Shown here: in pieces, positions 17,332-48,530 of the stretch
Position numbering within the stretch: position 1 is the stretch's first letter
Layout of the letters: every line of letters starts with the position of its first letter
Assembly: GCA_028280605.1 (NCBI GenBank)
Contig: JANQLL010000103.1
Location: 1-50,476, forward strand
Reading direction: 5' to 3'
Source of the DNA: Candidatus Gastranaerophilales bacterium
GTDB taxonomy: Bacteria > Cyanobacteriota > Vampirovibrionia > Gastranaerophilales > JANQFW01
DNA length: 50,476 nt
Made by a program: the position numbers and the translations under genes
Notes under the pieces: generated by a model
Told to the model about the DNA's origin: nothing
What the model saw: only the letters and a program-made list of their open reading frames with translations
The model's database searches: none

Positions 17332-17369
17332 TGTTATATATATAAAAAATATATAAAATAGATAATTGC
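17332..17369 (-). promoter_or_regulatory. Conserved promoter-like motif (copy 1)
   Basis: GCAATT-N14-TTTTTT-ATATAT-ATAACA, followed by GAGTTATAAACCCTACC shared with the 19440 copy. Confidence 0.55.
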
Positions 17370-18226
17370 GTTTTGAGAGTGATTTTATTAACTTATATTA
17401 AGTTGATTTTATATAAAGCCCTATTACTAGATAGTATAAAAAGCATCCATTGCAAAATCCGCTTCTTTTAGCCTTAAAGAGAGCCAAAAAAAATATTCAA
17501 TTATGTGTTGCAGATAATTTAAATAAAAGTAGGCAATGATATTCTCTTTATTGAAAAAGAGGAAAAATAGGCACACTTATCCCATAAGCGGGAAAAATAA
17601 TGCTTGGAAATTAAATTTTGCGTGGCTTGCGCATCCTTTAATCTCTTGTAAAATAATGGTTTTAACAATTGATATAATATTTGATTGTTGATATAAAACA
17701 TATTTAATGCTTGTTTTTTATTTTTATTAGTAGTTTGTGCTGATGTGGCATCAGCTTTATTGTTTTTATTTATTATTATTTTCTTTTTTAATTCTTTTAA
17801 AAATAAAAATATATTATAAAAATACATATCAATATGTGCAAAAGCACAAAGAGAAAGCTTTTTTCCGCTAGTTTGATTTTGTTGCGCCATAATTGGGCAC
17901 AGGAATGCTATAATGTTCCACAAAATGATGAATAAATTTTCGATGTAGCTTGTTAAATTCATTTTTTATAGCCTTTAAGTCTCTTCTGTAAAAAGTTAAA
18001 ATTTTAATATATTTACATTTTATGTATTTATTATATATTTTAACATTTTTTTGAAATATCCGCAGGCTCTCAAAGTATACAAATGCTATTTTTGTAACAT
18101 TAGTTAATAAATTCGCCAATATTAAATTTAAAAGAAAGAAACAACAATTTCTTACTTATCAAATGATACTAATCTTTACGAATCAAAAAACCGTTACATG
18201 CCCTGATTTAATAACCTTATACTAAA

Positions 18227-18332
18227 TATACTTCCACTAAAATACTTTTCAGATTATTAAATCAAGTTAGAGTTAATAAAATAAACTATTCTCTGAAAAG
18301 AGTAATCTGAAATTTAATTTGAGAACAGAATA
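18227..18332 (+). mobile_element. MITE-like repeat, 106-bp form
   Basis: Near-identical to the 16411 copy without the ~60-bp internal segment. Confidence 0.8.
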
Positions 18333-18823
18333 AAAATGACAAAAAAAAATATATAGAGGAAAAACTTTCCTGTATATATAAGTTACTTATAATAATATAC
18401 AACAACATACTACTGAAAAAAATAAATACTGCTTAAATATATGCCGTTAATAATTATTAACGCAAAACTTTTTAATCGATTTTAACTATATTTTAGGGAT
18501 ACAAATAATATCAATAATAGGGCGCTGATCTTCGTACACTTATATCTAATACATCTATTTTTGCATACAATAATCTAATATTAAGCCATCCTATAAGCGC
18601 ATCATTTTTGTTTTTTGTAGACTTATTTGGGCACAGTTATTTTTCTAAAATGCTCTTTAAACGCCTCTGTAATATCTTTTACACATATTGCAGTTTATTA
18701 TTATTTAAATCTGAGCTTTTATAGCCATATATAACAACCAACCAAATAATTGTCTTGGGTAAAACTTTTAGTTACTACTTAACTTATACTACCATTTATT
18801 TTTAAAATAATTTGACTTACGTA

Positions 18824-19120
18824 TTAACCGAATATTGATTTATATGCAAAGTCTACATTTTTATCAACCTGCTTTTTAGTGGCTTCTTCGTGTGTTTGTA
18901 TAATTTTTAGTTGAGTTTCGAAATTCTTTTGTTCCAGTTCCAGCCTTTGATCTTCTATTTTAAGAGCTTGATTAGGACCTTGCGGAGAATTACCTTGTTG
19001 TTGTTGTCCCATTATGTTTGCTAATTGGGTTCTTTTATGAGATATTTGTTGAAGGCGAAACTCCACATTCGCTTTTCTGTTAATTAACCCTAGCTGCATC
19101 GCTTTTTGAAATGCTACCAT
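18824..19120 (-). CDS. Helical-hairpin protein, paralog of 16601..16891 (98 aa; start revised from 19201)
   Basis: GGGAG RBS before ATG 19120; QISHKRTQLA / LELEQKNFETQLKIIQT / DKNV align with the paralog. Confidence 0.8.
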   Translation of the reverse strand: MVAFQKAMQLGLINRKANVEFRLQQISHKRTQLANIMGQQQQGNSPQGPNQALKIEDQRLELEQKNFETQLKIIQTHEEATKKQVDKNVDFAYKSIFG

Positions 19121-19439
19121 TCTAAAATCTCCCATAGGTAAAGTAATACACACTTGTAATATTGTTAATAATAAATTGAACCAATAATACCACCATAACA
19201 ACCTAAGTTCTTTTCATTATTTATTGCTATATATAGTAATAAATAATGTTCAATTTACTATGAATATAAATTAAATTTGATAGGTAAAATTTTAAAATAA
19301 TTCAAAGAATTTAATTCTACTACTTATTATTAAGCTTAGTACTCATATAATATGAATACCTTTTACTTATACAGTTTTACTATAATAACCATTTAAATAT
19401 ACTTTAATAACCATCTCATTTGGGTAAGGTTTAAAACTC

Positions 19440-19477
19440 TGTTATATATAAAAAAACAAACAAGGATAAATATTTGC
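19440..19477 (-). promoter_or_regulatory. Conserved promoter-like motif (copy 2)
   Basis: GCAAAT-N14-GTTTTT-TTATAT-ATAACA-GAGTTTTAAACCTTACCC. Confidence 0.55.
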
Positions 19478-19598
19478 CTTTTCATGTTATAATTATTAAG
19501 TTATATTACAAATAACATCAAATTATCATATAATTTGATAAAATCATAATTAACTTATAAAATATTAGTGGATCTTTAGTGTTTGGAGGAGAGGTTTT

Positions 19599-20321
19599 AT
19601 GAAAAAATTTTTAATAACAACATTAGCTGCTTTATTGTTTGTAAATATAAATAATGGCATAGCTATGGGACAAAATATACAAGATCTGTCTTCCCAAAGT
19701 GTAATTAAAGCTAATATACAATCCCAAAGAATACCGATAGGCACAAAAATTAAATTAAGAATGGAGAATCCTGTAAACTCACAAAATTCGGCATTGGGAG
19801 ATTCTTTTATTTGTACAATTATGGAAGATATTATTGTAAATGATGAACTAATTTTACCGGCAGGCTCAATTATTAGAGGAAAAGTAGAAAATATAAAAAA
19901 GAACGCATTATTTTGTATTGGTGCAGAAATGACTATATCTCTAGAACATATTGTTACACCGGTCGGCAGGCAAGTTCCGTTAAAGGCTCGTCTTACAGGC
20001 ATTAACGGTTTAACTGATGAAGGTGTAATACGTGCTGGAGGCGGATATTTTAATCAATTGGAAAAAAATATGGATCGTAGCTCTGATGTTTTTCATAGAA
20101 TAACGAATGCTGGTCTTGAGTATGGTCAATCTATAGGAAATGGATTTCCTGTTGTTATAACAGCCCCGGCTGCGGCGGTAGGAGGTATTTTTGTTGGTGG
20201 TGGAACCTTTGTGACAAAATCAGTTATGGCTTTATTTAAAAAAGGACCAAACGTAAAAATCCACCCCGGAGATACATTTGAATTAATAACAACAGAAACT
20301 CTGGATATTCCTTCACATTAA
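19599..20321 (+). CDS. Exported protein with TrbI/VirB10-like beta domain
   Basis: Signal peptide; IPIGTKIKLRM, ILPAGSIIRGKV, KGPNVKIHPGD. Confidence 0.7.
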   Translation: MKKFLITTLAALLFVNINNGIAMGQNIQDLSSQSVIKANIQSQRIPIGTKIKLRMENPVNSQNSALGDSFICTIMEDIIVNDELILPAGSIIRGKVENIKKNALFCIGAEMTISLEHIVTPVGRQVPLKARLTGINGLTDEGVIRAGGGYFNQLEKNMDRSSDVFHRITNAGLEYGQSIGNGFPVVITAPAAAVGGIFVGGGTFVTKSVMALFKKGPNVKIHPGDTFELITTETLDIPSH

Positions 20322-20333
20322 TCGAGGTGAAGC

Positions 20334-21652: not shown

Positions 21653-22912
21653 TTAGTCAATGCGTCTTAGATGTGTAACATCAAACGCTTCACATTCTTC
21701 TTTAGTTAATGCTCTACATTCCATAACGGTTTTTCCTAGAATACCGCTTAAGCTATGGAAATCACCTTCAGGATCAACTGTTATACCACTACTTTCAGCT
21801 TTTATATGTACTTTAGAATTTGTATCAGGTGTTGTTATGTACATTTGATTTCTGTAGGAATGAACAGTAGTGCCATCTTGTAGCTTGTGTTGACCATAAT
21901 TAAGAGCTTTACCATTAAGGTACATTTCCCCGGATTTAGTAAATTGTATATTATCATTGCCTGCTTTTACATTTAAGGTTCCAACAACCTGTGGATTTTT
22001 CGGGTCTTTATATGGAACATATTTGCCATCTATTTGTAAATTATCGCCGCTGAAGATGTTATAAGTGTTATTATCTATACCTTTGTGGTCAAATTTTATT
22101 CTTTTACCATTTTTAGCAACAACGTCATAATGGGGATCACCCCATTCGCCTCGTCCCTCTTTAGCTATATTATATTCTTTTGGAGGAGGGGGTGGAGGTG
22201 TCTTTATTGTTTTTATAGCTGTATTTACATTATTGACTAAGCCTTTAAAATCATTAACAGCTGCATTGGCGGCTTTGTTATAAATTTCCTGCTGAATATG
22301 TTGATTCAGCTGCGTATAAGTTTCTCTTACAAGACCATTAAAAATTTCCATCCTCATTTGATTAAACATATTTTGAAAACGATTTGCTAATGTATTAGTT
22401 GAAGGCATTTGCGGTGGTCTTGGAGGAACTTGCTGTGGGCTAGGCACCGGCTGCATAGGTCTTTGTTGTGGCATTGGTCTTGGCATTGATGCAGGAGCAG
22501 GTCTACTTGATCTTAAACCATTTAATATATTTAATAATTGACCTATTTGACCCATTAAAAAATTATTTGATTGACTGTTTAGTATTGGTGAATGTTTTGT
22601 TTGTACTACCGGCTTGTAGTAAGCTTGCGCAGGAATACCTGCAGGTGGTCTATAAAACTGTGGTGGTATCTTTGCAAGTCCTGGAGGTGGTGGATTAGAA
22701 TTTATCTGATTAATTGAGTTCCCATTGCTAACATTGACATTTTGGGAATTAGTTATAATATTAGAATTATACATAGGTGATTTGCCAAGCATATTATTAG
22801 TATTAAAAATACTGTCAGATGCACTAGGTGCAAAGCTGAATTTTTGTATTAATGAGTTTAAGCTTACGTTTAAATTATTTGAAAAAGGATCATTATAATT
22901 ATTAATTGTCAT
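21653..22912 (-). CDS. N/P/Q-rich protein with C-terminal GDPH (VWD-like) beta domain
   Basis: Low-complexity N-half, PPPPPP linker, then GEWGDPHY and terminal GILGKT; AAAGGA RBS. Confidence 0.75.
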   Translation of the reverse strand: MTINNYNDPFSNNLNVSLNSLIQKFSFAPSASDSIFNTNNMLGKSPMYNSNIITNSQNVNVSNGNSINQINSNPPPPGLAKIPPQFYRPPAGIPAQAYYKPVVQTKHSPILNSQSNNFLMGQIGQLLNILNGLRSSRPAPASMPRPMPQQRPMQPVPSPQQVPPRPPQMPSTNTLANRFQNMFNQMRMEIFNGLVRETYTQLNQHIQQEIYNKAANAAVNDFKGLVNNVNTAIKTIKTPPPPPPKEYNIAKEGRGEWGDPHYDVVAKNGKRIKFDHKGIDNNTYNIFSGDNLQIDGKYVPYKDPKNPQVVGTLNVKAGNDNIQFTKSGEMYLNGKALNYGQHKLQDGTTVHSYRNQMYITTPDTNSKVHIKAESSGITVDPEGDFHSLSGILGKTVMECRALTKEECEAFDVTHLRRID

Positions 22913-22975
22913 GAATTTATCCTTTCATCGCCGGTTTATTAAATAAATCACCTATACATTTATTTAATATATATA

Positions 22976-23013
22976 ACTTATCTATATAAAAACGAGTAGT
23001 ATATATTAATTGT
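22976..23013 (-). promoter_or_regulatory. Conserved promoter-like motif (copy 3)
   Basis: ACAATT-N14-GTTTTT-ATATAG-ATAAGT, 64 bp upstream of ATG 22912. Confidence 0.55.
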
Positions 23014-24820: not shown

Positions 24821-26842
24821 TTATTCTTCACTTTCTTTTGCAGGTTTCTTTTTTACTGGTGTAGTCTTTTTCGCTGTAGTTCTTCTAGGTGTAGTTTTCT
24901 TAACTGTAGTTGTTTTTCGCTTGGTAGTTGAAGTTGACTTTGATGCTGTTGTTCTAGGCTTTTTAGCCGTAGTTCTTTTTTTAGGAGCTTCCTCCTCTGC
25001 TTTTTCTTCGGATTTTTCAGCAGTTTCTTCTATTACCATTGGCTCTTCTGCTTTTTCTTCAGTAGGTTCATCCACTACCGGTTCTTCTACTTTTTTCTCT
25101 TCTGGTTGCTCCTTCTCTGGATGCGCTTCTATTTTTTCAACCTGTTTGACAGGTGATACTTCTACAGCCTTTTTCGGAGGTTCTTGTGGTGTAGCAACAG
25201 GATGATTTTCGGCTTCAGCAAAAGCCATTTGCTCATAAGATTCAATTTCCTGTAATATAGAGAATACATCCATAATATAATCATCAGTCATTTTTTCTCT
25301 TGCCACATGTGGGGGCATAGCTGAGAATCTAACCATATCAGAATATTTTGGAACAAATCCTTTTTGTTTAAAGAATTCTTTTAGTGATTTTTGATCTAGT
25401 TTTTTTAGTTCAATGCCAACTACATCTTCTTCTTTCTTTTTCTGTACAGCTTCTTTAATTATAGATGGTGAGGTTTTTATCTGCCTCGCTGGTTTTTTTT
25501 CCGGTTTGGGTTCCGGTTTAGGCTCTATTGGCTGTGCTTGTTGTTGTGCGGTAGAAGATTTTAGGCGTGCGATTTTTTGAGCATTTTTAATTTTAGATGC
25601 TCTTATTCTATAATCATGTTCTTGAGGTGGTGGTGAGAAATTAAATTCTTCTATTACAGAACCACTACCTAAACATGCCGGACATTTTTTTGTGAATACT
25701 TCTGCAAGACTTTGTCCTTGCCTGTGTCTTGTCAATTCAACCAGACCTAAATCAGATAACTGACCAACTTGAGGCTTAGCCTTATCTTTATCCATTGCCA
25801 TTTCTAATTCTTCAAGAATAGCAAGCTGGTCAACACGATTTTCCATATCGATTAAGTCTATAATGATCATACCGCCAATATTTCTTAGTCTTAATTGACG
25901 TGCGATTTCTTCAATTGACTCTAAATTAGTTTGTCTAATCGTTTCATTTTGCGTTGCAGAACTGGTAAATTTACCGCTATTAACGTCTATGACCGTCAAT
26001 GCTTCAGTTGTTTGGATATATAAATAACCACCACTTGGCAGATTTACTTTTGTTTGCAATGCTGATCTAATTTCTTTGTCAATACCCTTGGATACAAGTA
26101 TTGACTCTGTACCCTTATGAACAGAAACAGTTATTCCGCTTCCTATATTCCAATTTTGCAGTAATTGATTAGTTCTATTTAGTGCAAATTGTGTATCAAC
26201 AATAATATCTTTAATTTCTTCCGTACAAGCTTCTCTTATAACTTTGTATAACAAATCTTGATCTCTATACAAAAGATTAGGAGGAGAAACTGTATCTGCA
26301 GCAGTTACAATATTGTTCCATCTTTCTACCAGCAGTTCTAAATCTTCCTGAATTTCAGATTCTTTTTGCCCTTCGGCTTCTGTTCTGATAATAATACCAA
26401 CACCTTTGGGTTTTAACAAATTTACAATAGACTTTAAACGACCTCTCTCTTTAGCTGATGCAATTTTACGACTTACACTAGCACCTTTTTCATCAGGCAT
26501 AAATACTAAAAATCTTCCGGGTAGGCTAATTGCCGTAGTAACTCTAGGACCTTTATGTCCAGTAGGTTCTTTAATAATTTGAACTAATAACTGTTGCTTC
26601 GGTTTCAATCTCTCGGTCAGTGCGCCTTTACCTGCAATATCAGACGAATGTAAAAATCCCATTTTATCACCGCCTAAATTAACAAAAGCAGCATCAATAC
26701 TAGGCAATATATTTTCGACAGAGGCAAGATACACATCACCCAGTAACATATCACCTCGATTTATAATAAATTCTACGGCTTTTCCGCCCTCTACTACTGC
26801 TGCAATATTGTCACGTTCCGAGATTACTATAGATTTACTCAT
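24821..26842 (-). CDS. rne: Ribonuclease E/G family with long charged C-terminal tail
   Basis: S1 domain IDAAFVN, KEPTGHKGPR, TEALTVIDVNSG, RQLRLRNIGG, CPACLGSG. Confidence 0.95.
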   Translation of the reverse strand: MSKSIVISERDNIAAVVEGGKAVEFIINRGDMLLGDVYLASVENILPSIDAAFVNLGGDKMGFLHSSDIAGKGALTERLKPKQQLLVQIIKEPTGHKGPRVTTAISLPGRFLVFMPDEKGASVSRKIASAKERGRLKSIVNLLKPKGVGIIIRTEAEGQKESEIQEDLELLVERWNNIVTAADTVSPPNLLYRDQDLLYKVIREACTEEIKDIIVDTQFALNRTNQLLQNWNIGSGITVSVHKGTESILVSKGIDKEIRSALQTKVNLPSGGYLYIQTTEALTVIDVNSGKFTSSATQNETIRQTNLESIEEIARQLRLRNIGGMIIIDLIDMENRVDQLAILEELEMAMDKDKAKPQVGQLSDLGLVELTRHRQGQSLAEVFTKKCPACLGSGSVIEEFNFSPPPQEHDYRIRASKIKNAQKIARLKSSTAQQQAQPIEPKPEPKPEKKPARQIKTSPSIIKEAVQKKKEEDVVGIELKKLDQKSLKEFFKQKGFVPKYSDMVRFSAMPPHVAREKMTDDYIMDVFSILQEIESYEQMAFAEAENHPVATPQEPPKKAVEVSPVKQVEKIEAHPEKEQPEEKKVEEPVVDEPTEEKAEEPMVIEETAEKSEEKAEEEAPKKRTTAKKPRTTASKSTSTTKRKTTTVKKTTPRRTTAKKTTPVKKKPAKESEE

Positions 26843-26869
26843 AAAAAATTTTTTCCTCGTAATAAACCT

Positions 26870-29494
26870 TTATTTTAATTCTTTTAAATTCCTATCCATT
26901 AATCTTACTCGTCTTATCCGCCATTTTACACCCGGCATAAGTGCCTCAAGAAACTCATTTGGTTTAACAATAGGAATATTAACATCATCATTTTTATCTG
27001 TTTGTCCAATTCTAAGGACGAATTCCAGTTTATCTTTCTTCAATTCAATATTTTGAACACTTGATTTAATATCAATAATTTTTTTTGTTTTCTTTTTAAA
27101 GTTAGTTTTTTCAATAAGTATACTTTCTGACCTTAAAAAGTTATTAATTTTTTCATTTATAGACTGCGCATCATCTAGCATATTTTCTATAGGTTGAGCT
27201 GTATATTTTGCCCATTTTGCGATTTTATCAACAACTGGTTGAGAGCTGCATATTTTTAGTACTTCAAGTACTTTAGACTCCTCAGGCAAATTTTTATTTA
27301 ATCGTTCTAACAACTCCTCTTCTTGAAGTTCTTCTACCAGTTCAATATCTGCAAATTCCGTTTCACTTTCCAAAAATAAGACTAATGCTAAACTGATAGA
27401 TATTTTAGGTGAAGGGTTAAAACCCTTAGTAAAGTTTAAACTAATACCGCTTTTTTTAAATGCTTTATACAAAAGTTTTTGCCAATCCAGATGAGAGATA
27501 TATCGCAAAAAACCAGTTTTTTGTAATTTCAAACGGTATCGAAAAACTTTTTCATATACCTTTCTGATATTTATTCTATCACAATTCTCAATTTGTGGAA
27601 TACCTTTATTAATAATTTTTTTTCTATTCATATTTTTACATATTCCACAATTGGCACAATTATCTTCACAGCAAGTTATCAAGCTTTCTTCCACTGCTGC
27701 TAAATAATTTTTTTTCAGCCAGCATTTATCAATTCCCGCATTTATAATATCCCACGGGAGTGAATCATCCGGGGTTAACAACCTGCCGGAATAATCGTCC
27801 ATATTAATGCCACTTTCATCAAAGGCATTTTCCCACAAAGCAATGTTAAAATATTCATCCCAAGGGTCAAGATATGCACCTTTTTCATAAACTTTTTCAA
27901 TAACATTACATAAATTCCTGTCACCCTTTGCAAGTACAGCTTCTAATTGGCTATGTGATGGTGCATGAAATTTAAGTCTTGTTCCTTTTATATATTTTAT
28001 TTTTGATTTTAAGTATGATATTTTTTCTGAAATAACTTTTTTAGAATCTTGGGCACACCACTGAAATGGAGTAAATGGCTTGGGGACAAAAATCGAAACC
28101 GTGCAAGTTATATCAAGGTGTCCAGATAGATTTTTTTCTTTTCTGATTGCTTTACTTTTGTCTTTTATATTTTCTAGCAAAAGCAAAATAGCATCTAAAT
28201 CCTCATAAGTTTCAAACGGCAAACCTATCATAAAATACAATTTAACACTCTTCCAGCCTGCTTGGTATACTGTCATTACGGCATCTAAAATTTGCTCTTC
28301 AGTTAGATTTTTATTAATAATATTTCGCATTCTTTGGCTACCAGCTTCTGGCGCAAATGTTAAAGTGCTTTTTCTAACAGATTGAACCATTTCCGCTAGG
28401 CTTAAGCTAAAATTATCTGCCCTCTGGCTTGGCAAAGAAATTGATGTCCCTTCTGGCGCAAATTTATTATTTAAAGCACATACAAGCGGTTCAATCTCAT
28501 TATAATCACTGGATGATAATGATAATAAAGAATACTCATCATAACCCGTATTTCTTAAAAGTTTTTCAGCAAGATCAATTACTTTAGTTGAATCTTGTTC
28601 TCTTATGGGTAAATTAACGTGTCCCGGTTGGCAAAATCTGCACATCCGACCGCAACCGCGTCTAACTTCAATCACTGCCCTGTCATGTACTCCTGGTGTA
28701 TAAGGTACCGGATGATCTTCAGGGCAATCAATTGTTTTTAGATCAGTAACTATTCTTCTTTTAATATTATCACTTACACCATCTTTTTGGGGTATAGGTT
28801 TCGAAAAATTCCCTTGCATTTCATAAAAAGATGGGGCGTAAAGCCCTTCAATTTTAGATAAATTAAATATAATTTCTTTCCGTGGCATATTATGCCCTTT
28901 TAATTCACTATATTTCTCAAGCAATTCCCTGTTAACGTCTTCTCCATCGCCAATAGTAAACAAGTCAATAAATTCTGCCATAGGTTCAGGGTTATAGCAA
29001 CAAGGTCCGCCTGCAATTATTATAGGGTGAGATTCATCCCTTTTATTATTCCTGATAGGAATTCCTCCCAGTTCCAGCATTGCTAAAGCCGTTGGATAAC
29101 TTAATTCATATTGCAAAGAAAATGCAACAAAATCAAATTGATTAAGTGGTTTAAAAGATTCTAATCCGTATAACAAAAGGCTATTTTCTTCTAATTTTTC
29201 TTTAAAATCTTTGTCCGGTGCATAAACTCTATCCGCATAGAAATCATTATCCATTACATTGTTAATAATATTATATAAGACTCTTAGCCCTAAATTTGAG
29301 ATCCCAACTTCGTACAAATCAGGAAAAGCAAAAGCTAATTTTACTTTTGAATCATCCCATTTCTTTTGCGAACACCCTAGTTCGTTACCTATATACCTTG
29401 ATGGTTTTTTTACATCTGATAATATTTTTTCAAGCTTATCTAATCCAAACACTTTCAAATAAGATTGCTCTTCGCGTGAGCTCTCTAAAACCAT
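26870..29494 (-). CDS. B12-binding radical SAM protein fused to DUF2344-like domain (TIGR03960/TIGR03936-like)
   Basis: KPSRYIGNE, FPDLYEVG, RGCGRMCRFC, APEAGSQRMR, ISHLD...GFNPSPK. Confidence 0.92.
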   Translation of the reverse strand: MVLESSREEQSYLKVFGLDKLEKILSDVKKPSRYIGNELGCSQKKWDDSKVKLAFAFPDLYEVGISNLGLRVLYNIINNVMDNDFYADRVYAPDKDFKEKLEENSLLLYGLESFKPLNQFDFVAFSLQYELSYPTALAMLELGGIPIRNNKRDESHPIIIAGGPCCYNPEPMAEFIDLFTIGDGEDVNRELLEKYSELKGHNMPRKEIIFNLSKIEGLYAPSFYEMQGNFSKPIPQKDGVSDNIKRRIVTDLKTIDCPEDHPVPYTPGVHDRAVIEVRRGCGRMCRFCQPGHVNLPIREQDSTKVIDLAEKLLRNTGYDEYSLLSLSSSDYNEIEPLVCALNNKFAPEGTSISLPSQRADNFSLSLAEMVQSVRKSTLTFAPEAGSQRMRNIINKNLTEEQILDAVMTVYQAGWKSVKLYFMIGLPFETYEDLDAILLLLENIKDKSKAIRKEKNLSGHLDITCTVSIFVPKPFTPFQWCAQDSKKVISEKISYLKSKIKYIKGTRLKFHAPSHSQLEAVLAKGDRNLCNVIEKVYEKGAYLDPWDEYFNIALWENAFDESGINMDDYSGRLLTPDDSLPWDIINAGIDKCWLKKNYLAAVEESLITCCEDNCANCGICKNMNRKKIINKGIPQIENCDRINIRKVYEKVFRYRLKLQKTGFLRYISHLDWQKLLYKAFKKSGISLNFTKGFNPSPKISISLALVLFLESETEFADIELVEELQEEELLERLNKNLPEESKVLEVLKICSSQPVVDKIAKWAKYTAQPIENMLDDAQSINEKINNFLRSESILIEKTNFKKKTKKIIDIKSSVQNIELKKDKLEFVLRIGQTDKNDDVNIPIVKPNEFLEALMPGVKWRIRRVRLMDRNLKELK

Positions 29495-30263: not shown

Positions 30264-31961
30264 TTATTGGGCAACTTCTTGCCCTGGTCTGTAAGCCGGA
30301 ATTTTCCAAGACTCTTGACCTTGATCTTGAGGGGAATTTACAATTTTTTGAGCAACTGCATTATCTTGTGGTATGCTATCAGCTAGAACCGCTACAGCTT
30401 TTTGAGCTGTGTCTTTTAATGTAGCTAATGCTTGTTGCGCATTAGGATCTTTTGCACTCTTCATAGAGCTATCAGCATTAACTATTTCAGAGTTAAATAA
30501 TTTTGCGTACTTTTGAGCATCTTGAGGTTGGGCAATTGTCATTAATGCATCAATAGCAGTTATTTTTACTCCAGGGTCTACATCTTGCTTAAGTGCTATT
30601 TCAAATATAGTAGATAATGGATCATGATCTTTAGGTGTTGCTAAGTATTTAAGTGCACTTATGCCTGCAGCTCTAATGGTAGGATCTGCATCATTTTTTA
30701 CATTGTTAACGATTGATACAATTTCAGGGAGTTCGTTCAATGAGAGATCTTGAATTCCTTGTTTTTGCGCTTCTTCATTCATTGATTCTCTGAAGTTTTT
30801 CATCAATATTGCTAATGTCCACATACCAATCATTTTATTTACATGATCTTTTTCTCTTACATCTTTTTGTTCAGGAGTTTCATTTGGTTTTGGATTTGTA
30901 TCTTTAGTTACAATATCATGTAAGGATTTAAATACTTTTTCATTCAGCAATGCTTCTGATTCTTTGGATTTAACCTGACCTAACTCTGCAATTTTTTGGA
31001 TACCAACTGTTTTTTCATCAGCATCTTCAGATGTTAACAAATTAACTATTTTATCAACATCCATTGCCTCCTCTGTTTGTAAACTATTTGCCTTTGCTGT
31101 TTCATCTATTTGAGCAGCTTGTTGTGTAGGTGGTTGTACCACTTGTTGTTGAGATGAAATTTCAGTTGGAACTGGTGCCGGAGGTGCTGGAATATTTACA
31201 CTCGGTGTTGCTACTTGAGGTGTTATTTGTCCTGCTTGAGTTCCGTCTATAGTTGCTATTGGAGGTGAGCTAAGTGTTGGTTCAGGCGTAGCAGGTACTA
31301 TTTGAGAACTAGCCTGTCCAACTTGTGACTCCCCCGGGCTAGGGATAGGTGGTGGAGTTAATACAGCTTGCTGGCTTACTGGCTGAGGTTGTGCAGGTAC
31401 TATTTGTGGACCTGATTGTACCAAAGTAGGACCAACAATGTTAGGTATAGTTGGTGTTACTAGACTTCCTTGTTGTTGAGGAGTCATTGTTGAAGCCCCA
31501 TGAGCAAATGGAAAAGTTGTTGCAATATTGCTCATTTTGTCTTGAACAGAGCTCATTTGTTTTTGCAACATTTCAAGGGTTTGCTGTAACTTAGGATCAA
31601 TCTGTTGTTGTGCAGTTGCAGCAGGTAATCCGCTCATTGTTGCTTGTGGCATATTATATTGAGAAGCAGTAGGAGGTTGTCCGTATATTGACCCCTGTAC
31701 TATATTATATGGTTGAGCAATAGGAGGCTGTCCGTACATTAGTCCTTGCTGTATATTATTTTGTGAAGCAATAGGAGGTTGTCCATATATTGAACTCTGT
31801 GGCATTCCATACATAGGAGCATATGGAGATGCACTTAGGTAATTACTATCTGGAGTTTGGTGGTTCACCTTAGGCTCAATAATATCGATGTTCACCGCCG
31901 ATATTTTTGTCGGAGGCGACATAGTTGCCATAGGCATTCCTGTTCTTATTGGTGAATACAT
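30264..31961 (-). CDS. Q/P-rich protein with C-terminal HEAT-like repeats
   Basis: Three 17-aa YGQPP repeats, disordered middle, DADPTIRAAGISAL / DVDPGVKITAIDAL. Confidence 0.85.
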   Translation of the reverse strand: MYSPIRTGMPMATMSPPTKISAVNIDIIEPKVNHQTPDSNYLSASPYAPMYGMPQSSIYGQPPIASQNNIQQGLMYGQPPIAQPYNIVQGSIYGQPPTASQYNMPQATMSGLPAATAQQQIDPKLQQTLEMLQKQMSSVQDKMSNIATTFPFAHGASTMTPQQQGSLVTPTIPNIVGPTLVQSGPQIVPAQPQPVSQQAVLTPPPIPSPGESQVGQASSQIVPATPEPTLSSPPIATIDGTQAGQITPQVATPSVNIPAPPAPVPTEISSQQQVVQPPTQQAAQIDETAKANSLQTEEAMDVDKIVNLLTSEDADEKTVGIQKIAELGQVKSKESEALLNEKVFKSLHDIVTKDTNPKPNETPEQKDVREKDHVNKMIGMWTLAILMKNFRESMNEEAQKQGIQDLSLNELPEIVSIVNNVKNDADPTIRAAGISALKYLATPKDHDPLSTIFEIALKQDVDPGVKITAIDALMTIAQPQDAQKYAKLFNSEIVNADSSMKSAKDPNAQQALATLKDTAQKAVAVLADSIPQDNAVAQKIVNSPQDQGQESWKIPAYRPGQEVAQ

Positions 31962-32079
31962 GCTTGTCCTTCCCCTTAAATTTTCGTCTAATCCAATTCC
32001 TATTTTAACTATTTATAAAAAGTTAAAACACATTTTTTGTTGCTAATTTTTTTTTGAATATTAAGTTTTTTTAAGAAAA

Positions 32080-32541
32080 TTAATCTATATAATTTCTTTT
32101 ACCAATTCCAAAAACTTCTGTACCTATTGTTTTTGCTCCAAATAAGCCTAAGAGTACAGCACTTACTTTAGAAACAATTGGCCCAAATCTTTGTCCGGCT
32201 ATTTTTTCACCACAAATTGCTCCCAATGATAATCCTATAGGTATAAGGTTTTTACCAATAGAACTAATCATTGAAAAGAATATATTCTTAACAGTGAAAA
32301 AGTCAGATAGGGCTCCGCTTTGTAAAACGGAATTTTGATACCAGCCCTTCATTCTGTCTAACATCGGACTTTCTCTATTTGAATAAGTATTGTTTACAAC
32401 TACCTTTGTGCAGTAATTGCCAATATCAATATTAGCTCGGTCTTTACCATTCCTGACACCATTGCTAATGGTGTCATAGCCAATAGCTAATATAGAAGCG
32501 GCACCTACGGCTTTGGCTACATTGCCGTAATTAAAATTCAT
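32080..32541 (-). CDS. Hypothetical membrane protein
   Basis: AGGAGG RBS, hydrophobic helices, between two paralogous Q/P-rich genes. Confidence 0.75.
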   Translation of the reverse strand: MNFNYGNVAKAVGAASILAIGYDTISNGVRNGKDRANIDIGNYCTKVVVNNTYSNRESPMLDRMKGWYQNSVLQSGALSDFFTVKNIFFSMISSIGKNLIPIGLSLGAICGEKIAGQRFGPIVSKVSAVLLGLFGAKTIGTEVFGIGKRNYID

Positions 32542-32553
32542 AAGATCCCCTCC

Positions 32554-34176
32554 TTATCTTGACATTAAGTTTAAATTTTGCCCTGTTTGAGATTGGGGAC
32601 TTTGTAATTGTGGATTTTGCATAGATTGCTCGGGTCTGTAAGACTTTATTGACCAATCCTGTGGTCCTGGCTGTTGAGGCGGAGGCATCTTTTCATAAAA
32701 TGCTTCAGGATTAAAATTCTGCTCTAATGGAGGTCCTTGCATTTGTGGATTTTGTAAACCCTGCGCTGGTGGCATTTGAGGATTAAATCCCGGAGCTAAG
32801 GGTTGAGCTGGAATTGCCTGTTGGTCAAATCCTTGTTCAATTGGTTCTTCCATTACACTTGATTCGCCCATTCGTTTGAGTAAGAGACTATTAGCGGTTT
32901 GTGCATCTTGGTTGAATGCTTTATTGGATTTTTGCATGTCTTTTAGTATCTTGATTGTTAAATCGTCACCATCCGCATAATCTCCGTACAGAATAGATAA
33001 GGCAAGTGTTCTATTTACCATAGATCTATCTCTTAATGCTTTATTTATCAGGTTTGTTAGCGCAGGGTCATCTCTTAGAGTTTTATCTTTTTTCAATTGC
33101 TTTAATATTTCTTTGATTGCAGTTTGCCTAACATCAGCATTAGGATTATTTAAATAATTCTCCAAACTTTTTATATACTCATCGGATAGATGAGTTTTTG
33201 TCATAGGCGGTTGAGGCTTATGTCTTTTTGCAGCATTAGGCGGTCCGCTGTCTTGAGGTGGCTGAATATTTTGAGCCCCCGGTGGAGGTTCTTGCATTTG
33301 ATCTTGAGGCATTTGTGGAGTCATTTCACTTGGTTGCTGCAATGATTGAGTTGCTAATGGCTCTTCTTTTTGTTCTTGCGCAGCAGGTGAACCTTGCCCT
33401 AAACCCTGAGCCGGCAAAGCAGTTTGTTGTTGTTGTTGTTGCATGCGGTTGCAATTACATCCGCCATTACAGCAACAGCAATTAGACATTGGCATAGGCA
33501 TAGGTATGTATTGAGGTATTATCATTGGATACATCATTGGATATAGTGGTGGTTGTTGCACTGCTGGTTGAGGTGCGGTACTTGTTTGTGGTGGTGTAGA
33601 AATAAAATACTGATTATAAGCAGGTCCTTCGGACTGAGGTGCAGAATTTGCAGCTCCAACCTGTTGTTGTGGTATCGCAGTCGATAATGCATATTGACTA
33701 CCGACTGGTATCTGATACATCGATGCAGCTGGTGTAGTTAAAATTTGTGATTGTGACAATGCTGCAGATGGTAGGCTACCAATTGGCATTTGATACTGCG
33801 GTACAGCCGGTGCAGTTAAAATTTGTGATTGCGGTAACGCTGCGGATGGCAGACTACCTATTGGAACCTGATATGCTGGTAATGTTGCAGGCTGCATTGT
33901 ATATTGATTATAGACGGGCTTTTGCGTAACTGTTTGTGGAATATAATATTGATTGTAAACAGGTTGTCCTGCTCCTCCCACCGCAACAGGCATCATTCCT
34001 CCTTGCTGTCCAGCTGTAGGCATTAATTGATATTGCGGATAGTTATAACCTTGTGAATTATATTGATTATTATCTGCACATGGAGGCAGATTTACTGTTG
34101 GATTGTGAATTTTAATTTCTACAGCTCCAACACTTGGCTTATACGCCGCTGTTTTATTTTGCACGCTTTGTTCCAT
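32554..34176 (-). CDS. Q/P-rich protein with HEAT-like domain, paralog of 30264..31961
   Basis: 26-aa tandem repeats (YQxPIGSLPSAAL), CCCCNGGCNC, LNNPNADVRQTAIKE. Confidence 0.85.
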   Translation of the reverse strand: MEQSVQNKTAAYKPSVGAVEIKIHNPTVNLPPCADNNQYNSQGYNYPQYQLMPTAGQQGGMMPVAVGGAGQPVYNQYYIPQTVTQKPVYNQYTMQPATLPAYQVPIGSLPSAALPQSQILTAPAVPQYQMPIGSLPSAALSQSQILTTPAASMYQIPVGSQYALSTAIPQQQVGAANSAPQSEGPAYNQYFISTPPQTSTAPQPAVQQPPLYPMMYPMIIPQYIPMPMPMSNCCCCNGGCNCNRMQQQQQQTALPAQGLGQGSPAAQEQKEEPLATQSLQQPSEMTPQMPQDQMQEPPPGAQNIQPPQDSGPPNAAKRHKPQPPMTKTHLSDEYIKSLENYLNNPNADVRQTAIKEILKQLKKDKTLRDDPALTNLINKALRDRSMVNRTLALSILYGDYADGDDLTIKILKDMQKSNKAFNQDAQTANSLLLKRMGESSVMEEPIEQGFDQQAIPAQPLAPGFNPQMPPAQGLQNPQMQGPPLEQNFNPEAFYEKMPPPQQPGPQDWSIKSYRPEQSMQNPQLQSPQSQTGQNLNLMSR

Positions 34177-34294
34177 TTACTTCCCCAAATTTTTCATTAT
34201 ACATTCCCACTATATAAATAAACAATCAAAGTTCTTATTTTTTGCTCAATTTTTAACAATTAATTAAGTTTTATAAACCTTAGTTACAGCTAAT

Positions 34295-44048: not shown

Positions 44049-44102
44049 TGTTAAAACTAGCCTTTTGTTGAATAAAAAATAATATTTTAACCATGTAACT
44101 GC

Positions 44103-44218: not shown

Positions 44219-44425
44219 ATGCCACGTAATAATGAAATCATTGACGATATTTTAGCTAAAATCAGCACAGAAGACTTAATAAGCGAATTAGCAAGCAGAG
44301 ATGATGCCAAAGAGCTAATCTATACTTATGATGACTTCGTTATAGTCTCAGGATGCAATGAAAAATGCAAGCTAAGTTATGAAGCCAAAGGTCCGTTGCG
44401 GATTTTAATTTTAGAGATGGATTAA
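44219..44425 (+). CDS. Small phage-associated protein, BC1881-like, copy 2
   Basis: 64/68 aa identical to copy 1. Confidence 0.65.
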   Translation: MPRNNEIIDDILAKISTEDLISELASRDDAKELIYTYDDFVIVSGCNEKCKLSYEAKGPLRILILEMD

Positions 44426-44588
44426 CTACATAGCTAATACCCCGCAAATCATTAATGCAAGATTATTTTAGCATAAATATATGGATACTGTATTTTATAA
44501 TTATTTTTATTAAATACAGGAATGAGAGTAACCGGCTTCGCACCATCAGGTACCTCGACCATAAAATAAAAATAAACTTATTTTTGAT

Positions 44589-44623
44589 AAAGGCACCGGC
44601 TTCGCGCTATCAGGTGCCTTTTT
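44589..44623. terminator. Bidirectional terminator-like hairpin; related copies at 43666 and 44531
   Basis: AAAGGCACC-GGCTTCGCGCTATCA-GGTGCCTTTTT. Confidence 0.7.
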
Positions 44624-44644
44624 ACTTTTGTAAAAAAATCATCC

Positions 44645-46831
44645 CTACAATTTTTTGCCACTCAATCGTATACTATTTGTAACAACAGATACAGAGCTAA
44701 AAGCCATGGTCAAAGCCGCAATCATGGGGTTAAGCAAAACCCCGAATCCCGGATATAATGCCCCAGCAGCCAAAGGAATCGCTATAACATTATAAATAAA
44801 AGCAAAGAACAAGTTTTGCTTTAAAGTCCTCATAGTTTGCCTCGATAAATTAATAGCCTTAAAAGTACTGCTCAAATCACCTTTAATAATAGTAATATCA
44901 GAAGACTCAATAGCAATATCCGTACCGGTTCCCATAGCAATGCCAACATTAGCTTGAGCAAGAGCCGGCGCATCATTTATACCATCCCCAACCATTGCAA
45001 CAATTTTTCCTTCATCCTGAAGCTTTTTAACTACATCAACCTTTTCTTGCGGTATAACTTCAGGTATAAATCGTTCTATCCCTAATTTTTTAGATATTGA
45101 CGATGCAACAGCTTTTTTGTCACCGGTAAGCATTATAACTTCAATACCCATTGATTTTAGTTTTTTAACAGTTTCTTTCGCATCAGGCTTTAACGGATCC
45201 GAAACAGCTATTATTCCTCTTGCTTGTTTGTCAATAGACACACAAATTACAGTATTGCCTTCGGTCTGTAACTCAAGGATCTTTTGCGTAAAACTGCTTA
45301 TATCTATATTATTATATTCCATTAATTTTTCAGAACCAATTAAAACTTCTTTATCGTCAACAAAAACAGACAATCCGTGCCCCGGCAACGCTTTAAAATC
45401 TCGGGTCTGAGCAATATTAATATTTTCCTCTTGCGCTTTTTTTACCACAGCAAAAGCTAATGGGTGCTCTGACAATTTTTCTGCAGAAGCAGCAAAGTAT
45501 AAGAGTTGATTTTTATCTATATCAGAATAAATATCAGTTACAACAGGCTGCCCCATTGTAAGCGTACCTGTTTTGTCAAAAGTTATAGCTTGTATTTTGT
45601 CAGCTGCTTCAAGGCTCTCAGCATTTTTTATCAAAATACCGTTTTTCGCACCAAGACCGGCTCCTACCATTATTGCAGTAGGTGTAGCTAATCCCAGAGC
45701 GCAAGGGCAAGCAATAATAAGAATCGCAACAAAAGTTATAATAGCTAACGAGGGATTAAAATTTAACCAAATAAATAAAGTTAAAAGCGCAATCCCAATA
45801 ACAGTTACAACAAAATACCCGCTGATAATATCAACCAATCGTTGCACCGGCGCTTTAGAAGAGAGCATATTTTTGACCATCCCTATAATTTGGCTTAATG
45901 TTGTGTCTTCACCGATTTTTGTTACCTTAAACTTAAAACTGCCGGTTTTATTAATAGTTCCGCCAATAATATAGTTTTGTACTTTTTTCTCAACAGGCAT
46001 ACTTTCACCGGTTATCATTGATTCATCAATAGTTGAAGCCCCTTCAATAATTTCACCATCGAGAGGTATCTTTTCACCAGGCTTAACCAGAACAACATCT
46101 TCAATTTTTATATCATCAATTAAAACTTCCTTTTCACCCTCGTCTGTAATCACTAAGGCTTTATCCGGTTGTAGCTCCATTAATTCTTTAACAGCTCTGG
46201 ACGCCCTACCTTTTGCCTTTGCTTCCAGCATCCTGCCAAGAAGTATTAAAGAAATAATAACAGTTGCGGTTTCATAATACACTTCTGGTTTTTGCCCGAT
46301 CAATTCAAAAGCCTGAGGGTAAATAGTGCTCACAAGGCTATAAATAAAAGCCACCCCCGTACCAACAGCAATAAGAGTATTCATGTTAGCAGATTTTGTC
46401 TTTAAAGCTTTAAACGCACCAGTATAAAACTGCTTGCCAAATACAAAAATAACCGGCAATGATAACACCAAAAGAACCCAATCTTTATAGGGAAACTCTA
46501 TCATTAACATACTAATAATAAATACCGGTAGGGTAAAAATCAGACTTAAAGTAAAATTTTTTTTCTGTTCCTGATATTCCTTTTCTTCTTTTAATTTTGA
46601 ATCTTCTTTTTTAATAAGATCTTCGGATGTATAACCCGTATCAATAATAACTTTTTTCACCTGAGAAACAGCTATCACTTCAGGATCAAATGTTATAAAT
46701 GCACTTTTTATAGCAAAGTTAATTTTTGCTTCTTTTATTCCTTGTGTTTCATTTAGAGCCTTTTCTATTTTAGCAGCACAACTTGCACAGCTCATGTTGT
46801 ATATTTTAAGTTCTATTTTTTTATCATCCAT
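44645..46831 (-). CDS. copA: Cu(I)-translocating P1B-type ATPase
   Basis: MSCASC HMA domain, TGES, CPCALGLATP, DKTGTLT, SEHPLA, GDGINDAP, YN and MAFSS. Confidence 0.95.
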   Translation of the reverse strand: MDDKKIELKIYNMSCASCAAKIEKALNETQGIKEAKINFAIKSAFITFDPEVIAVSQVKKVIIDTGYTSEDLIKKEDSKLKEEKEYQEQKKNFTLSLIFTLPVFIISMLMIEFPYKDWVLLVLSLPVIFVFGKQFYTGAFKALKTKSANMNTLIAVGTGVAFIYSLVSTIYPQAFELIGQKPEVYYETATVIISLILLGRMLEAKAKGRASRAVKELMELQPDKALVITDEGEKEVLIDDIKIEDVVLVKPGEKIPLDGEIIEGASTIDESMITGESMPVEKKVQNYIIGGTINKTGSFKFKVTKIGEDTTLSQIIGMVKNMLSSKAPVQRLVDIISGYFVVTVIGIALLTLFIWLNFNPSLAIITFVAILIIACPCALGLATPTAIMVGAGLGAKNGILIKNAESLEAADKIQAITFDKTGTLTMGQPVVTDIYSDIDKNQLLYFAASAEKLSEHPLAFAVVKKAQEENINIAQTRDFKALPGHGLSVFVDDKEVLIGSEKLMEYNNIDISSFTQKILELQTEGNTVICVSIDKQARGIIAVSDPLKPDAKETVKKLKSMGIEVIMLTGDKKAVASSISKKLGIERFIPEVIPQEKVDVVKKLQDEGKIVAMVGDGINDAPALAQANVGIAMGTGTDIAIESSDITIIKGDLSSTFKAINLSRQTMRTLKQNLFFAFIYNVIAIPLAAGALYPGFGVLLNPMIAALTMAFSSVSVVTNSIRLSGKKL

Positions 46832-47087
46832 AAAAATCTCCTAAGCAAATAAGGCTTTAAAAGTTATTTTATTCAATATATTATTTATTATAGGTGCAAA
46901 ATTAAAATCGAGAAATAATAAATACTATTTTAGTGGGAGTATGTTTGTTGCAACTTTTAACAACAAAAGTTAATTTAATAAATGTTTCTTCAATAATTTT
47001 AGAAACCATCGATATACATCCAAATATGCAAAAAATTGGTGACAATTACCATCGCTGTAGGAAAAAGGCAAAAATTTTGTTTTGATA

Positions 47088-47125
47088 GCAATTTTTAAAG
47101 TCAAATTGTTTTTAATAAAATAAGT
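47088..47125 (+). promoter_or_regulatory. Conserved promoter-like motif (copy 4)
   Basis: GCAATT-N14-GTTTTT-AATAAA-ATAAGT-AGGTT. Confidence 0.55.
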
Positions 47126-47292
47126 AGGTTATTTATATAAGTAGAGCATACCAGTTGTAGTAAAATTAAAATCTATTTGTATGATATTAAATTTTAACTA
47201 ATGATGCAAAAAATATTTTGTTATTAGTTGAATATTAACCATAAAATATTTAAGCCCTTTTAAGAATTATTCATAATTTATTTTAATCTATT

Positions 47293-47399
47293 TATATTAT
47301 TTAATAAAATACTTTTCAGACTCTTTAATCGAGTTAAAGTTAATAAAACAAATTACTCTCAGAAAAGAGTAATCTGAAATTTAATTGATGAGCAGTATA
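47293..47399 (+). mobile_element. MITE-like repeat, ~107 bp
   Basis: TAAAATACTTTTCAGA...AAGAGTAATCTGAAATTTAATTGATGAGCAGTATA. Confidence 0.8.
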
Positions 47400-47575
47400 T
47401 ATACTAAGGTTAAAAATATAAGTGCTAAAGAGTAGTTTGAGATATCTGTATAAATAATACATGTTATTTATATTTTAGATAATAAAATTTTAATATTTAA
47501 AAATTTCAACTTACATTTATCATAAATTGAATTCGCATTGAGTATTTCTATAATTACGCATTTGGAGGTATATCT

Positions 47576-48178
47576 ATGTCTATAAATGTTCAAGTTAATA
47601 ATTTTAACTTTGGTTCTGGTCAAAGCGGTGGTGGTAATAATTCTGGTGGCACCAGTCGCGGTAATTCTTCTTCAAGCTCAAGCAGTTCCGGCAGCTTTAG
47701 CGCCAGCTGGTCCAGTTCAAGCAGTGGTAGTTCTCGAGGCGGTAGTCGCGGTGGTGTGCGAGGAGGCTGTAGAGGCGGCAGCCGTAGTGGTAGCCGTAGT
47801 GGCAGTCGTAGTAGTTCCGGCAGTTTTAGTGCGAGCTGGGCTAATTCAAAAAGTCAAAGTGGCTCAGGTAACCAAAAAGGCTCAAAAGGTCAAGGCAATA
47901 ATTTTATGCAAATGCTGGGCAACTTTGCAAAATTATTCAGTTGCTTAGGTATGCTGGGTGACATGGGAGGAATGGCGGTCATGGGTGGTCAAAATAGTCA
48001 AGCTGGTCAAGGAAATCAAGGTTGCTTCATGGCAATGGGGGCAGATGGTTCTTTTGCACTTGGTCAAGGTAATCTTGATAGTTTATTTGCTGGAAATACT
48101 AATCAAGGTCAATGCAATTGTAATCAGCAAAATAATAGCAATATGTTAGCAATGCTCCTGCTCGGCAGCTCTAAATAA
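47576..48178 (+). CDS. Gly/Ser/Asn/Gln-rich low-complexity protein
   Basis: TTTGGAGGTATATCT-ATG RBS; SGSFSASW x2, xRG(G/S) repeats. Confidence 0.8.
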   Translation: MSINVQVNNFNFGSGQSGGGNNSGGTSRGNSSSSSSSSGSFSASWSSSSSGSSRGGSRGGVRGGCRGGSRSGSRSGSRSSSGSFSASWANSKSQSGSGNQKGSKGQGNNFMQMLGNFAKLFSCLGMLGDMGGMAVMGGQNSQAGQGNQGCFMAMGADGSFALGQGNLDSLFAGNTNQGQCNCNQQNNSNMLAMLLLGSSK

Positions 48179-48282
48179 TATACTCCATCTAAAATATTTT
48201 TCAGAATTAAAGCGAGTTAAAGTTAATAAAACAAATTACTCTCTGAAAAGAGTAGTCTGAAATTGAATTGATGAGCAGTATA
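48179..48282 (+). mobile_element. MITE-like repeat, 104 bp, abutting a stop codon
   Basis: TATACTCCATCTAAAATATTTTTCAGA...GATGAGCAGTATA. Confidence 0.82.
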
Positions 48283-48344
48283 ATAACAGGCTAAGTTTTG
48301 ATTTAACTTTTTAGATTTTTAACTTTTTTTTTTCATTTTAAAGA

Positions 48345-48530
48345 GCAATTTTTAAAGAAAATTTGTTTTTAATAAGATAAGTAGGTTACATATAAAAAGT
48401 AGAAAATTAAAAGAGTTCCTTGCCCAATAAAAAGAATTAAAAAGTAGCAATTTTTAAAAATGTTTTGTTTTTATTATAATAAGTAGGTTACATGTCTGAA
48501 GTAGTAAAAAATAATTCCTTACCCAGTAAA
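48345..48530 (+). promoter_or_regulatory. Two tandem promoter-like motifs (copies 5 and 6, 102-bp period)
   Basis: GCAATT-N14-GTTTTT-N6-ATAAGTAGGTTACAT at 48345 and 48447, each followed by TTCCTTRCCCA. Confidence 0.6.

Follow-up and report, generated by a model that had tools for sequence, protein, structure and literature searches.

Late flagellar promoters read by sigma-28 (FliA/SigD/WhiG) share the consensus TAAA-N15-GCCGATAA, and promoters of extracytoplasmic function (ECF) sigma factors of the SigR/SigH type read GGAAT-N18-GTT. In Campylobacter, non-flagellar proteins that are co-expressed with the flagellum are exported by the flagellar type III secretion system (T3SS). Melainabacteria, which are non-photosynthetic relatives of cyanobacteria, are almost wholly uncultured, and we know of nothing in print on their transcription regulation; a search of the full-text literature for promoters, sigma factors, FliA and flagella of Melainabacteria or Gastranaerophilales found nothing relevant. 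Here we describe a two-block promoter element, the motif, that recurs in contig JANQLL010000103.1 of a Candidatus Gastranaerophilales bacterium. All 50,476 nucleotides of this contig (the window) were analysed; it is contig C82 of a 3.33-Mb genome of 230 contigs with 31.7% G+C. For comparison we sampled 151 genomes of the class, in which f1-f12 designate families, G numbers genomes, L numbers loci and C numbers contigs. The best reading of the motif, judged from its sequence and distribution, is a promoter for a dedicated alternative sigma factor.

A first-pass annotation of the window had reported six copies of RCAAWT-N14-KTTTTT-N6-ATAA with identical spacing, and these are present at 17334-17369(-), 19442-19477(-), 22978-23013(-), 47088-47123(+), 48345-48380(+) and 48447-48482(+). 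Only 0.04 matches are expected in the window, and none of 100 shuffles reached six. The same expression has 19 matches genome-wide that are strikingly alike: beyond what the expression demands, motif positions T19, T20, A27, T28, A29 and S37 are conserved too. A 41-nt matrix, built from the genome-wide matches and then iterated, gave the refined consensus GCAATTTTT-N10-TTGTTTTTATAwwwwTRR. At 20 bits or more this matrix finds 112 sites in the genome and a single site in each of its three Markov-3 shuffles, and at 14 bits or more it finds 146 compared with 7-12, so that the motif occurs far above background frequency. Spacing is rigid, as had been claimed, because GCAAT-N14-TGTTTTTAT has 70 matches while the other spacings from N10 to N19 have 0-2 each. 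The columns of the 10-nt spacer carry less than 0.45 bits each, and spacer and flanks alike are unconstrained.

By a crude caller that accepts open reading frames (ORFs) of at least 60 aa greedily by length and covers 84% of the genome, 107 of the 112 sites are intergenic. The gene that follows an intergenic site is co-oriented in 85 cases and opposite in 11, the remaining 11 sites reaching a contig end, and orientation is thus not random. Site-to-ORF distances range from 21 to 763 nt. The motif therefore has the two blocks at a fixed distance and the intergenic, gene-directed placement of a bipartite promoter of the sigma-70 family. When the sites are clustered by the 200 nt downstream, they fall into 90 clusters, which argues that they are not one repeat family. 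The earlier proposal of a regulon of five orphan genes stands in that a promoter-like element precedes orphans, but its size was greatly underestimated, since there are about 100 such promoters genome-wide.

In the proposed anatomy, positions 1-8 would form a -35 block, GCAATTTT, and positions 20-29 a -10 block, TGTTTTTAT(A), with 11 unconstrained bases between them and a transcription start at the purine of position 35. The start is suggested by 19 promoters fetched from genomes of the gut family f2, in ten of which the ATG or GTG of a long ORF falls precisely on position 35. Orthologous M16-like peptidase genes, whose conserved N-terminus begins there, account for eight of these ORFs, and two are other genes (the apparently leaderless loci are L173, L180, L190, L192, L194, L195, L197, L198, L196 and L181). 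A start codon that leaves no room for a ribosome-binding site and occupies the same position in three gene families points to messages that are probably leaderless and would begin at position 35; leaderless mRNAs initiated at GTG would be unusual. Position 35 is A in 85/112 sites and G in 26/112, and a start there would leave the -10 block ending 6-7 nt before it. The first-pass annotation had placed the start at or near ATAA, which agrees with position 35, the third letter of that tetranucleotide. Leaders are short in f2 and 67-454 nt long in the window; no leaderless case was found in the window's genome.

The motif is present in six Melainabacteria families. A strict 28-nt pattern was found in every genome sampled from f2 (32/32), f3 (2/2), f6 (17/17), f10 (14/14) and f12 (1/1), and was rare in f4 (3/30), f5 (4/30), f7 (2/9), f8 (2/12), f9 (1/2) and f11 (0/1), with a reversed-pattern control giving 0-1 per genome. 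Motif-bearing families have 2-49 strict matches per genome, the gut relatives sampled having 2-8 each, and the window's genome is the highest, with 70. Between families the motif is kept before orthologous genes while the spacer has diverged. The assembly may derive from runs labeled coral metagenome, the only sequencing runs that contain the window nearly whole.

Most of the 82 co-oriented downstream ORFs are orphans; their median length is 193 aa, and they include no housekeeping gene. Relative to the other 2,907 ORFs, their products are richer in G (1.73x), Q (1.51x), N (1.42x) and P (1.30x). Residues 2-25 consist of N, S, T, Q or G at 37.8% in targets and 27.4% in the background, the value for 12 flagellar axial proteins being 41%. 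A hydrophobic N-terminal stretch occurs in only 4/82 targets, compared with 566/2,960 background ORFs, in keeping with the earlier description of the targets as orphan, signal-peptide-less, low-complexity or coiled-coil genes. The peptide S-[IV]-F appears within the first 120 residues of 24% of targets and 6% of other ORFs, and may serve in targeting, chaperone binding or processing. Its context is disordered, mostly 30-70 residues from the N-terminus, and it was noted also at L175 in a gut relative. Among the targets are paralog groups of eight NIGG-repeat proteins, of which five form a single array on C126, of six hairpin proteins and of five MCNC-type proteins. Targets common to the gut species and the window's genome are an operon encoding a 90-aa protein and a hairpin protein, the M16-like peptidase, and a protein of roughly 650 aa.

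The hairpin proteins are represented in the window by a 96-aa helical-hairpin protein (16601..16891, -), a member of a Melainabacteria-specific multi-copy family. Its 25 homologues, from records labeled Candidatus Gastranaerophilales, Melainabacteria and Vampirovibrionales, have conserved N- and C-termini and a variable middle. An AlphaFold2 model (pLDDT 91) places helices at residues 3-44 and 46-95, and a complex prediction with four copies scored 0.40 against a mark of 0.42, which speaks neither for nor against self-assembly. The protein matches no Pfam family at the curated cut-off. An Atlas search returned unnamed Melainabacteria clusters only, sequence searches of the PDB with the hairpin profile and with the GDPH protein described below gave nothing below E 0.01, and Foldseek comparison of the model with the PDB gave generic helical hairpins only (PspA, prefoldin, FadA and others), all at E >0.1.

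Hairpin genes and motif are found in the same set of families. The family is present in all sampled genomes of f2 (32/32, 11-29 matches each), f3 (2/2), f6 (17/17), f10 (14/14) and f12 (1/1), and in none from f4, f5, f7, f8, f9 and f11. In the window's genome the motif lies upstream of 8/9 hairpin ORFs, within 450 nt for seven of them. Among 59 low-GC loci with hairpin homologues, 30 have a + strand matrix match of at least 18 bits located 30-700 nt upstream; 13 further matches bring the + strand to 43 in all, and the - strand has 0. Where the match to the homologue reaches the N-terminus (39 low-GC loci), 28 have an upstream motif. These patterns suggest that the hairpin family is the core target of the putative regulon.

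The hairpin family is served by both motif promoters and sigma-28-type promoters. Of 21 high-GC loci, labeled Vampirovibrionales or similar, 16 have a sigma-28-like box 70-173 nt ahead of the hairpin homologue, where 0.027 per search interval would be expected from the remainder of the loci; such a box was seen in 4/59 low-GC loci. Hairpin paralogs of the f6 genome G082 carry either the motif or a sigma-28-like box, and the ninth hairpin ORF of the window's genome (C126:17147) has a sigma-28-like box 72 nt upstream. The flagellin genes of this genome have sigma-28-like boxes and no motif. Two AAGGA/AGGAG boxes, one overlapping the ribosome-binding site, are present in the flagellin leaders at C184:42217, C169:28762 and C214:28626, which we take to resemble the CsrA-controlled flagellin leaders of other bacteria. 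In two Vampirovibrionales-labeled loci the neighbors of the hairpin gene are prfC and unrelated genes, with no flagellar cluster.

The Pfam region-2 model recovers eight sigma genes from the window's genome, encoding RpoD, three RpoD-like proteins, one SigF-like protein, FliA and two ECF proteins. Region-4 models add two more genes without a Pfam region-2 match, both outside the window: the C86 type (214 aa, C86:15117-15761) and the C129 type (227 aa, C129:8891-9574). They score 73.6 and 73.0 bits with TIGR02937, the sigma-70 superfamily model (cut-off 42.9), and their best subfamily model is FliA/WhiG (TIGR02479), at 81.8 and 63.1 bits, below its curated cut-off of 189.6. Both candidates consist of regions 2 and 4 with a short acidic linker and lack region 3. 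The gene flhB (PF01312, 389 bits) is located immediately upstream of the C86-type gene in 12/12 loci examined. By coordinates, read by eye from two tables, it holds this position in f2 (31/32), f3 (2/2), f10 (14/14), f12 (1/1), f8 (11/12) and f6 (2/17).

Close orthologues of the candidates (53-75% identity, 2-3 copies) are present in every motif-bearing genome sampled, whereas f5, f7, f8 and f11 have one distant copy (31-41%) and f4 and f9 have none. FlhB follows the same distribution, being not found in f4 and f9 and present elsewhere. Two FlhB paralogs are encoded in the window's genome outside the window (C63:7224-8258 and C86:13924-14952); most f3, f5, f6, f10 and f12 genomes likewise have two copies, while f2, f7 and f8 have one, and in the two-FlhB genomes whose coordinates were compared the sigma-adjacent copy is the lower-scoring one. 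The C86 type is about 70% identical between the window's genome and f2, compared with 41-45% for the SigF-like sigma, an unusual conservation that fits an invariant promoter. Elimination of the other sigma factors, the distribution, the promoter geometry and the targets held in common with sigma-28 together make it fairly probable that the C86-type sigma, the C129-type sigma, or both, read the motif. The SigF-like sigma was considered as a reader and rejected: it occurs in 142/151 genomes, including those of motif-less families, and is missing at E 1e-20 from the motif-rich G035, G041, G053, G059, G069 and G064.

Several observations weigh against this assignment. The motif precedes no sigma gene, so no autoregulation is seen; for the eight region-2-positive genes, the best matrix score within 1.5 kb upstream is 3.8 bits. 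Nor does it precede a canonical flagellar structural gene (hook, rod, FlgK/L or FliD), and the flagellar link of the regulon comes from the position of the sigma gene and from the hairpin family. The phylogenetic tree separates the C86 type, the C129 type and the distant single copies into three clades that join in a polytomy, and the region-4.2 helices of the two paralogs are nearly alike, so either paralog may be the reader. Presence of the sigma family does not by itself predict the motif, because f8 genomes have an flhB-adjacent homologue yet neither motif nor hairpin family. In five f8 genomes, searches for another -35 box before TGTTTTTAT gave counts 1.1-1.9x those of the reversed control, with no box visible, and the hairpin profile had no match in five f5, f7 and f8 genomes. 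In f6 the sigma gene is mostly not beside flhB. The co-distribution of sigma and motif is confounded by shared ancestry, in that the motif-bearing families may be one clade and the association may reflect a single event. Furthermore, RpoD and canonical FliA are present in all the motif-bearing genomes whose sigma factors were enumerated, and only promoter anatomy argues against them. Both the start position and the sigma-motif pairing are drawn from sequence.

If RpoD itself, or the RpoD-like group-2 sigma C229:498-1601 (in which WWIQQ replaces WWIRQ in region 2.4), were the reader, GCAATT would be an altered -35 element or the site of a co-conserved activator. TATAww at positions 26-31 does look like a -10 hexamer, and the distribution of RpoD does not argue against it. 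C229-type orthologues (58-62% identity) are present in the motif-bearing G041, G069 and G064, and no RpoD-family sigma examined from the motif-less G006, G019, G020, G068 and G073 has C229 as its best match; however, the genus g35 (G035 and G053, with 9 and 13 strict motif matches) has no C229-type sigma. GCAATT and TATAww would then lie 19 bp apart. Sigma-70 promoters need A at -11 and T at -7, but the would-be -7 (position 31) is A in 70/112 sites and T in 40/112, and a start at position 35 puts T at -11. With no housekeeping gene downstream as well, we consider this explanation improbable. Still less probable is that canonical FliA (sigma-28, C126:48647-49480) reads both its classical promoter and the motif, the latter marking a late-flagellar sub-class. 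The block geometry of 8 + 11 + 8 matches that of sigma-28 promoters, both promoter types occur within the hairpin family, and FliA was found in all motif-bearing genomes whose sigma factors were enumerated. Yet the two -10 blocks have almost no bases in common, the flagellins of the same genome keep the classical box, and FliA is present in motif-less flagellated genomes as well; the two extra FliA-like sigmas are a simpler reader.

The first-pass annotation had favored an ECF regulon, and while an alternative sigma factor remains the best reading, the ECF part of that proposal has fared poorly. GCAA-N16-GTT does resemble some ECF promoters, and the window's genome encodes two ECF sigmas (C42:4656-5288 and C194:7277-7792) that might read it. 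The motif lies upstream of neither gene, so there is no autoregulation, and its conservation extends 13 nt past GTT, which an ECF -10 element does not explain. Moreover, G041, G053, G035 and G069 have no ECF-type PF04542 match although they contain 9-18 strict motif matches. Each of the four f6 genomes searched encodes only two or three region-2 sigmas, none of the ECF type, namely RpoD, FliA and a C229-type RpoD-like protein or, in G053, a 624-aa RpoD-like protein. An ECF reader is thus very unlikely. We give almost no credence to a dispersed repeat or mobile element that carries both boxes without being a promoter. A few duplicate sites with similar flanks exist, among them the tandem pair 48345/48447; the clusters comprise one of 16 members, which includes five mini-ORF units (see below) and is probably linked by a dispersed hairpin repeat, one of three, and five pairs. 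Against this stand the unconstrained spacer and flanks, the 90 clusters, the strong bias to intergenic, co-oriented placement, and the retention of the motif before orthologous genes whose spacers have diverged between families.

With a dedicated FliA-derived sigma as the preferred reading, the system might work as follows. A sigma without region 3 would be made together with FlhB, which is the subunit of the flagellar type III export gate that switches substrates; the position of the C86-type gene, directly after flhB, suggests that the sigma is made along with the export apparatus. It would bind GCAATTTT at -35 and TGTTTTTAT at -10, start transcription at position 35, and turn on about 100 promoters here for lineage-specific proteins that are small, polar, signal-peptide-less, and disordered or coiled-coil. 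The absence of signal peptides, the axial-protein-like N-termini, the linkage to flhB and the GDPH protein raise the possibility, still a doubtful one, that the products are exported through the flagellar apparatus or attached to it. We regard as unlikely, though conceivable, the fuller version in which the flagellar type III gate is re-used by a dedicated secretion programme for a large, fast-evolving set of disordered proteins (about 100 genes here), including a self-assembling hairpin subunit with 3-29 copies per genome, a GDPH self-cleaving effector-like protein, and S-[IV]-F as an export or processing signal. FlgM (PF04316) has no match in the window's genome. The suggestion of a secreted apparatus, made when the motif was first noted, is possible through this flagellar link, whereas nothing was found that points to the coat or developmental programme offered beside it.

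Within the window, the matrix scan adds a site that had been missed, at 11357..11397 (-), with 38.3 bits and a predicted start at 11363. Two further sites on this strand lie at 17329..17369 (26.3 bits; predicted start 17335, 444 nt upstream of the hairpin gene) and 19437..19477 (29.0 bits; predicted start 19443). A hairpin-family paralog is encoded at 18824..19135 (-) and was found by hmmsearch with the family profile at E 9.7e-15; its family-like N-terminus begins at ATG 19135, the listed ORF extending to TTG 19201. The site at 22973..23013 (-), which had been counted as a full copy, is weak (13.6 bits, with A at position 1 and C at position 20). Its predicted start, 22979, is 67 nt ahead of the GDPH gene, whose membership in the regulon is uncertain. 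On the + strand, the site at 47088..47128 (32.4 bits) has a predicted start at 47122, 454 nt before the ORF of a G/S/N/Q-rich orphan of 200 aa (47576..48178, +) that has a GGAGG box 7 nt before its ATG and matches no Pfam family. Two tandem units follow at 48345..48385 (+, 30.1 bits; predicted start 48379) and 48447..48487 (+, 39.3 bits; predicted start 48481, 262 nt before ATG 48743); they are spaced 102 nt apart and cluster together as a duplication. The ORF that begins there (48743..49261, +) encodes an N/Q/G/C-rich orphan of 172 aa, also without a Pfam family. RNA library run X3 has a single 188-nt contig inside this ORF, at 48922-49109, for which DNA carry-over is possible; having neither start, end nor strand information, it is no proof of transcription. 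RNA cover was absent from the remainder of the window, from which nothing follows.

Other elements that had been attributed to the regulon did not withstand the matrix scan. A weaker version of the motif reported before 34176 scores 7.2 bits at 34205-34245(-), which is noise level, and nothing of at least 5 bits precedes 31961. CCTTRCCCA had been described as a companion of several copies, but CCTTRCC follows only 5/112 sites, or 6/112 when relaxed to CC[TC]T[AG]CC. In the window its four cases are two paralogous pairs, which points to local duplication rather than a regulon feature.

The GDPH protein (419 aa, 21653..22912, -) has a low-complexity N-terminal half and a C-terminal domain with WGDPH. 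GDPH is the Ca2+-dependent self-cleavage site in proteins with metal-ion-inducible autocleavage (MIIA/DUF1521) domains, represented by NopE1/NopE2 and VIC_001052, which are tied to type III secretion and one of which comes from a coral pathogen (PMC6506597). At E <=0.1 the window's protein matches no Pfam family except for a sub-threshold match to FlgE D1, and neither DUF1521 (PF07481) nor VWD is found. Its Atlas leads are ITI_HC_C, DUF1521 (0.84) and VWD clusters, all below the lead threshold of 0.9.

Downstream of the 11357-11397 site is a 7-codon mini-ORF, MKQKRKG (11330..11353, -), behind a GGAG box. Five loci, on C82, C18, C164, C176 and C229, carry one promoter unit with the same -10/start region. 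A GGA/AGGA-rich transcribed leader is common to those on C82, C18, C164 and C176, the leader of the C229 copy differs, and the MKQKRKG ORF is present on C82, C18 and C164. Under the same sigma, this unit could specify a leader peptide or belong to a family of small regulatory RNAs. A second unit, of about 85 nt and dispersed between genes, contains an inverted repeat (core ...AATTACTCTC-AGAAA-AGAGTAAT...) and has copies in the window at 47317-47400, 48200-48285, about 49823-49930 and 16540-16590 (-); the first sits between the 47088 promoter and its ORF. In the DNA run, bins with this repeat have a summed contig depth of 970-2800 compared with about 30-60 nearby, and many contigs join across its copies. 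It looks like a REP-like repeat and is possibly a weak terminator. Elsewhere in the window, a fused radical-SAM/DUF2344 gene followed by an RNase E/G gene (24821-29494, -) is ordinary content outside this finding, and ORFs with HEAT repeats or resembling DUF5724 (30264-34176, -) occupy the most G+C-rich part (0.37-0.39 compared with about 0.30).

The motif is a ready-made and very specific promoter, and with it comes a candidate cognate sigma that escapes the standard domain models. The putative regulon is defined and numbers about 100 genes here, with a handful in human-gut Gastranaerophilales; it would unite many "hypothetical proteins" in a single testable programme connected with the flagellar export apparatus. 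Should the sigma-promoter pair be real, it could serve as an orthogonal expression switch. It would also help to find out which products these bacteria secrete or display in guts, and in corals too if the run labels reflect habitat.

Among known systems, the ECF (group 4) sigmas resemble the candidates in being small two-domain proteins of about 215 aa without region 3 that have an informative bipartite promoter and a discrete regulon. The motif lacks the AAC and CGT-type boxes of ECF promoters, however; there is no autoregulated sigma/anti-sigma operon, and the best subfamily model is FliA/WhiG rather than ECF. The MIIA/DUF1521 proteins share with the 419-aa protein the GDPH motif and the Atlas lead to a DUF1521 cluster, but the latter has no Pfam match to their domains, and the promoter site of its gene is weak. 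The flagellar-exported proteins of Campylobacter are likewise small, signal-peptide-less and under a flagellar sigma, and offer a working analogy for the proposed function, although the regulon here is far larger and would have its own sigma, and export of its products is conjectural. In sigma-28 promoters 11 nt separate two blocks of 8 nt and transcription begins about 7 nt past the second, as proposed for the motif, and the candidate sigma is FliA-like and linked to flagellar genes, with the hairpin family served by both promoter types. Their block sequences are nonetheless wholly unlike, and GCAATTTT-N11-TGTTTTTA fails the sigma-28 consensus; the candidate sigma scores 81.8 bits, far short of the cut-off of 189.6, has no region 3 and goes undetected by the Pfam region-2 model; and the motif targets are orphans, not flagellins or hook-associated proteins. 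The closest known system is the sigma-28 late flagellar tier, which the motif system would parallel in its working without being a member of that family.

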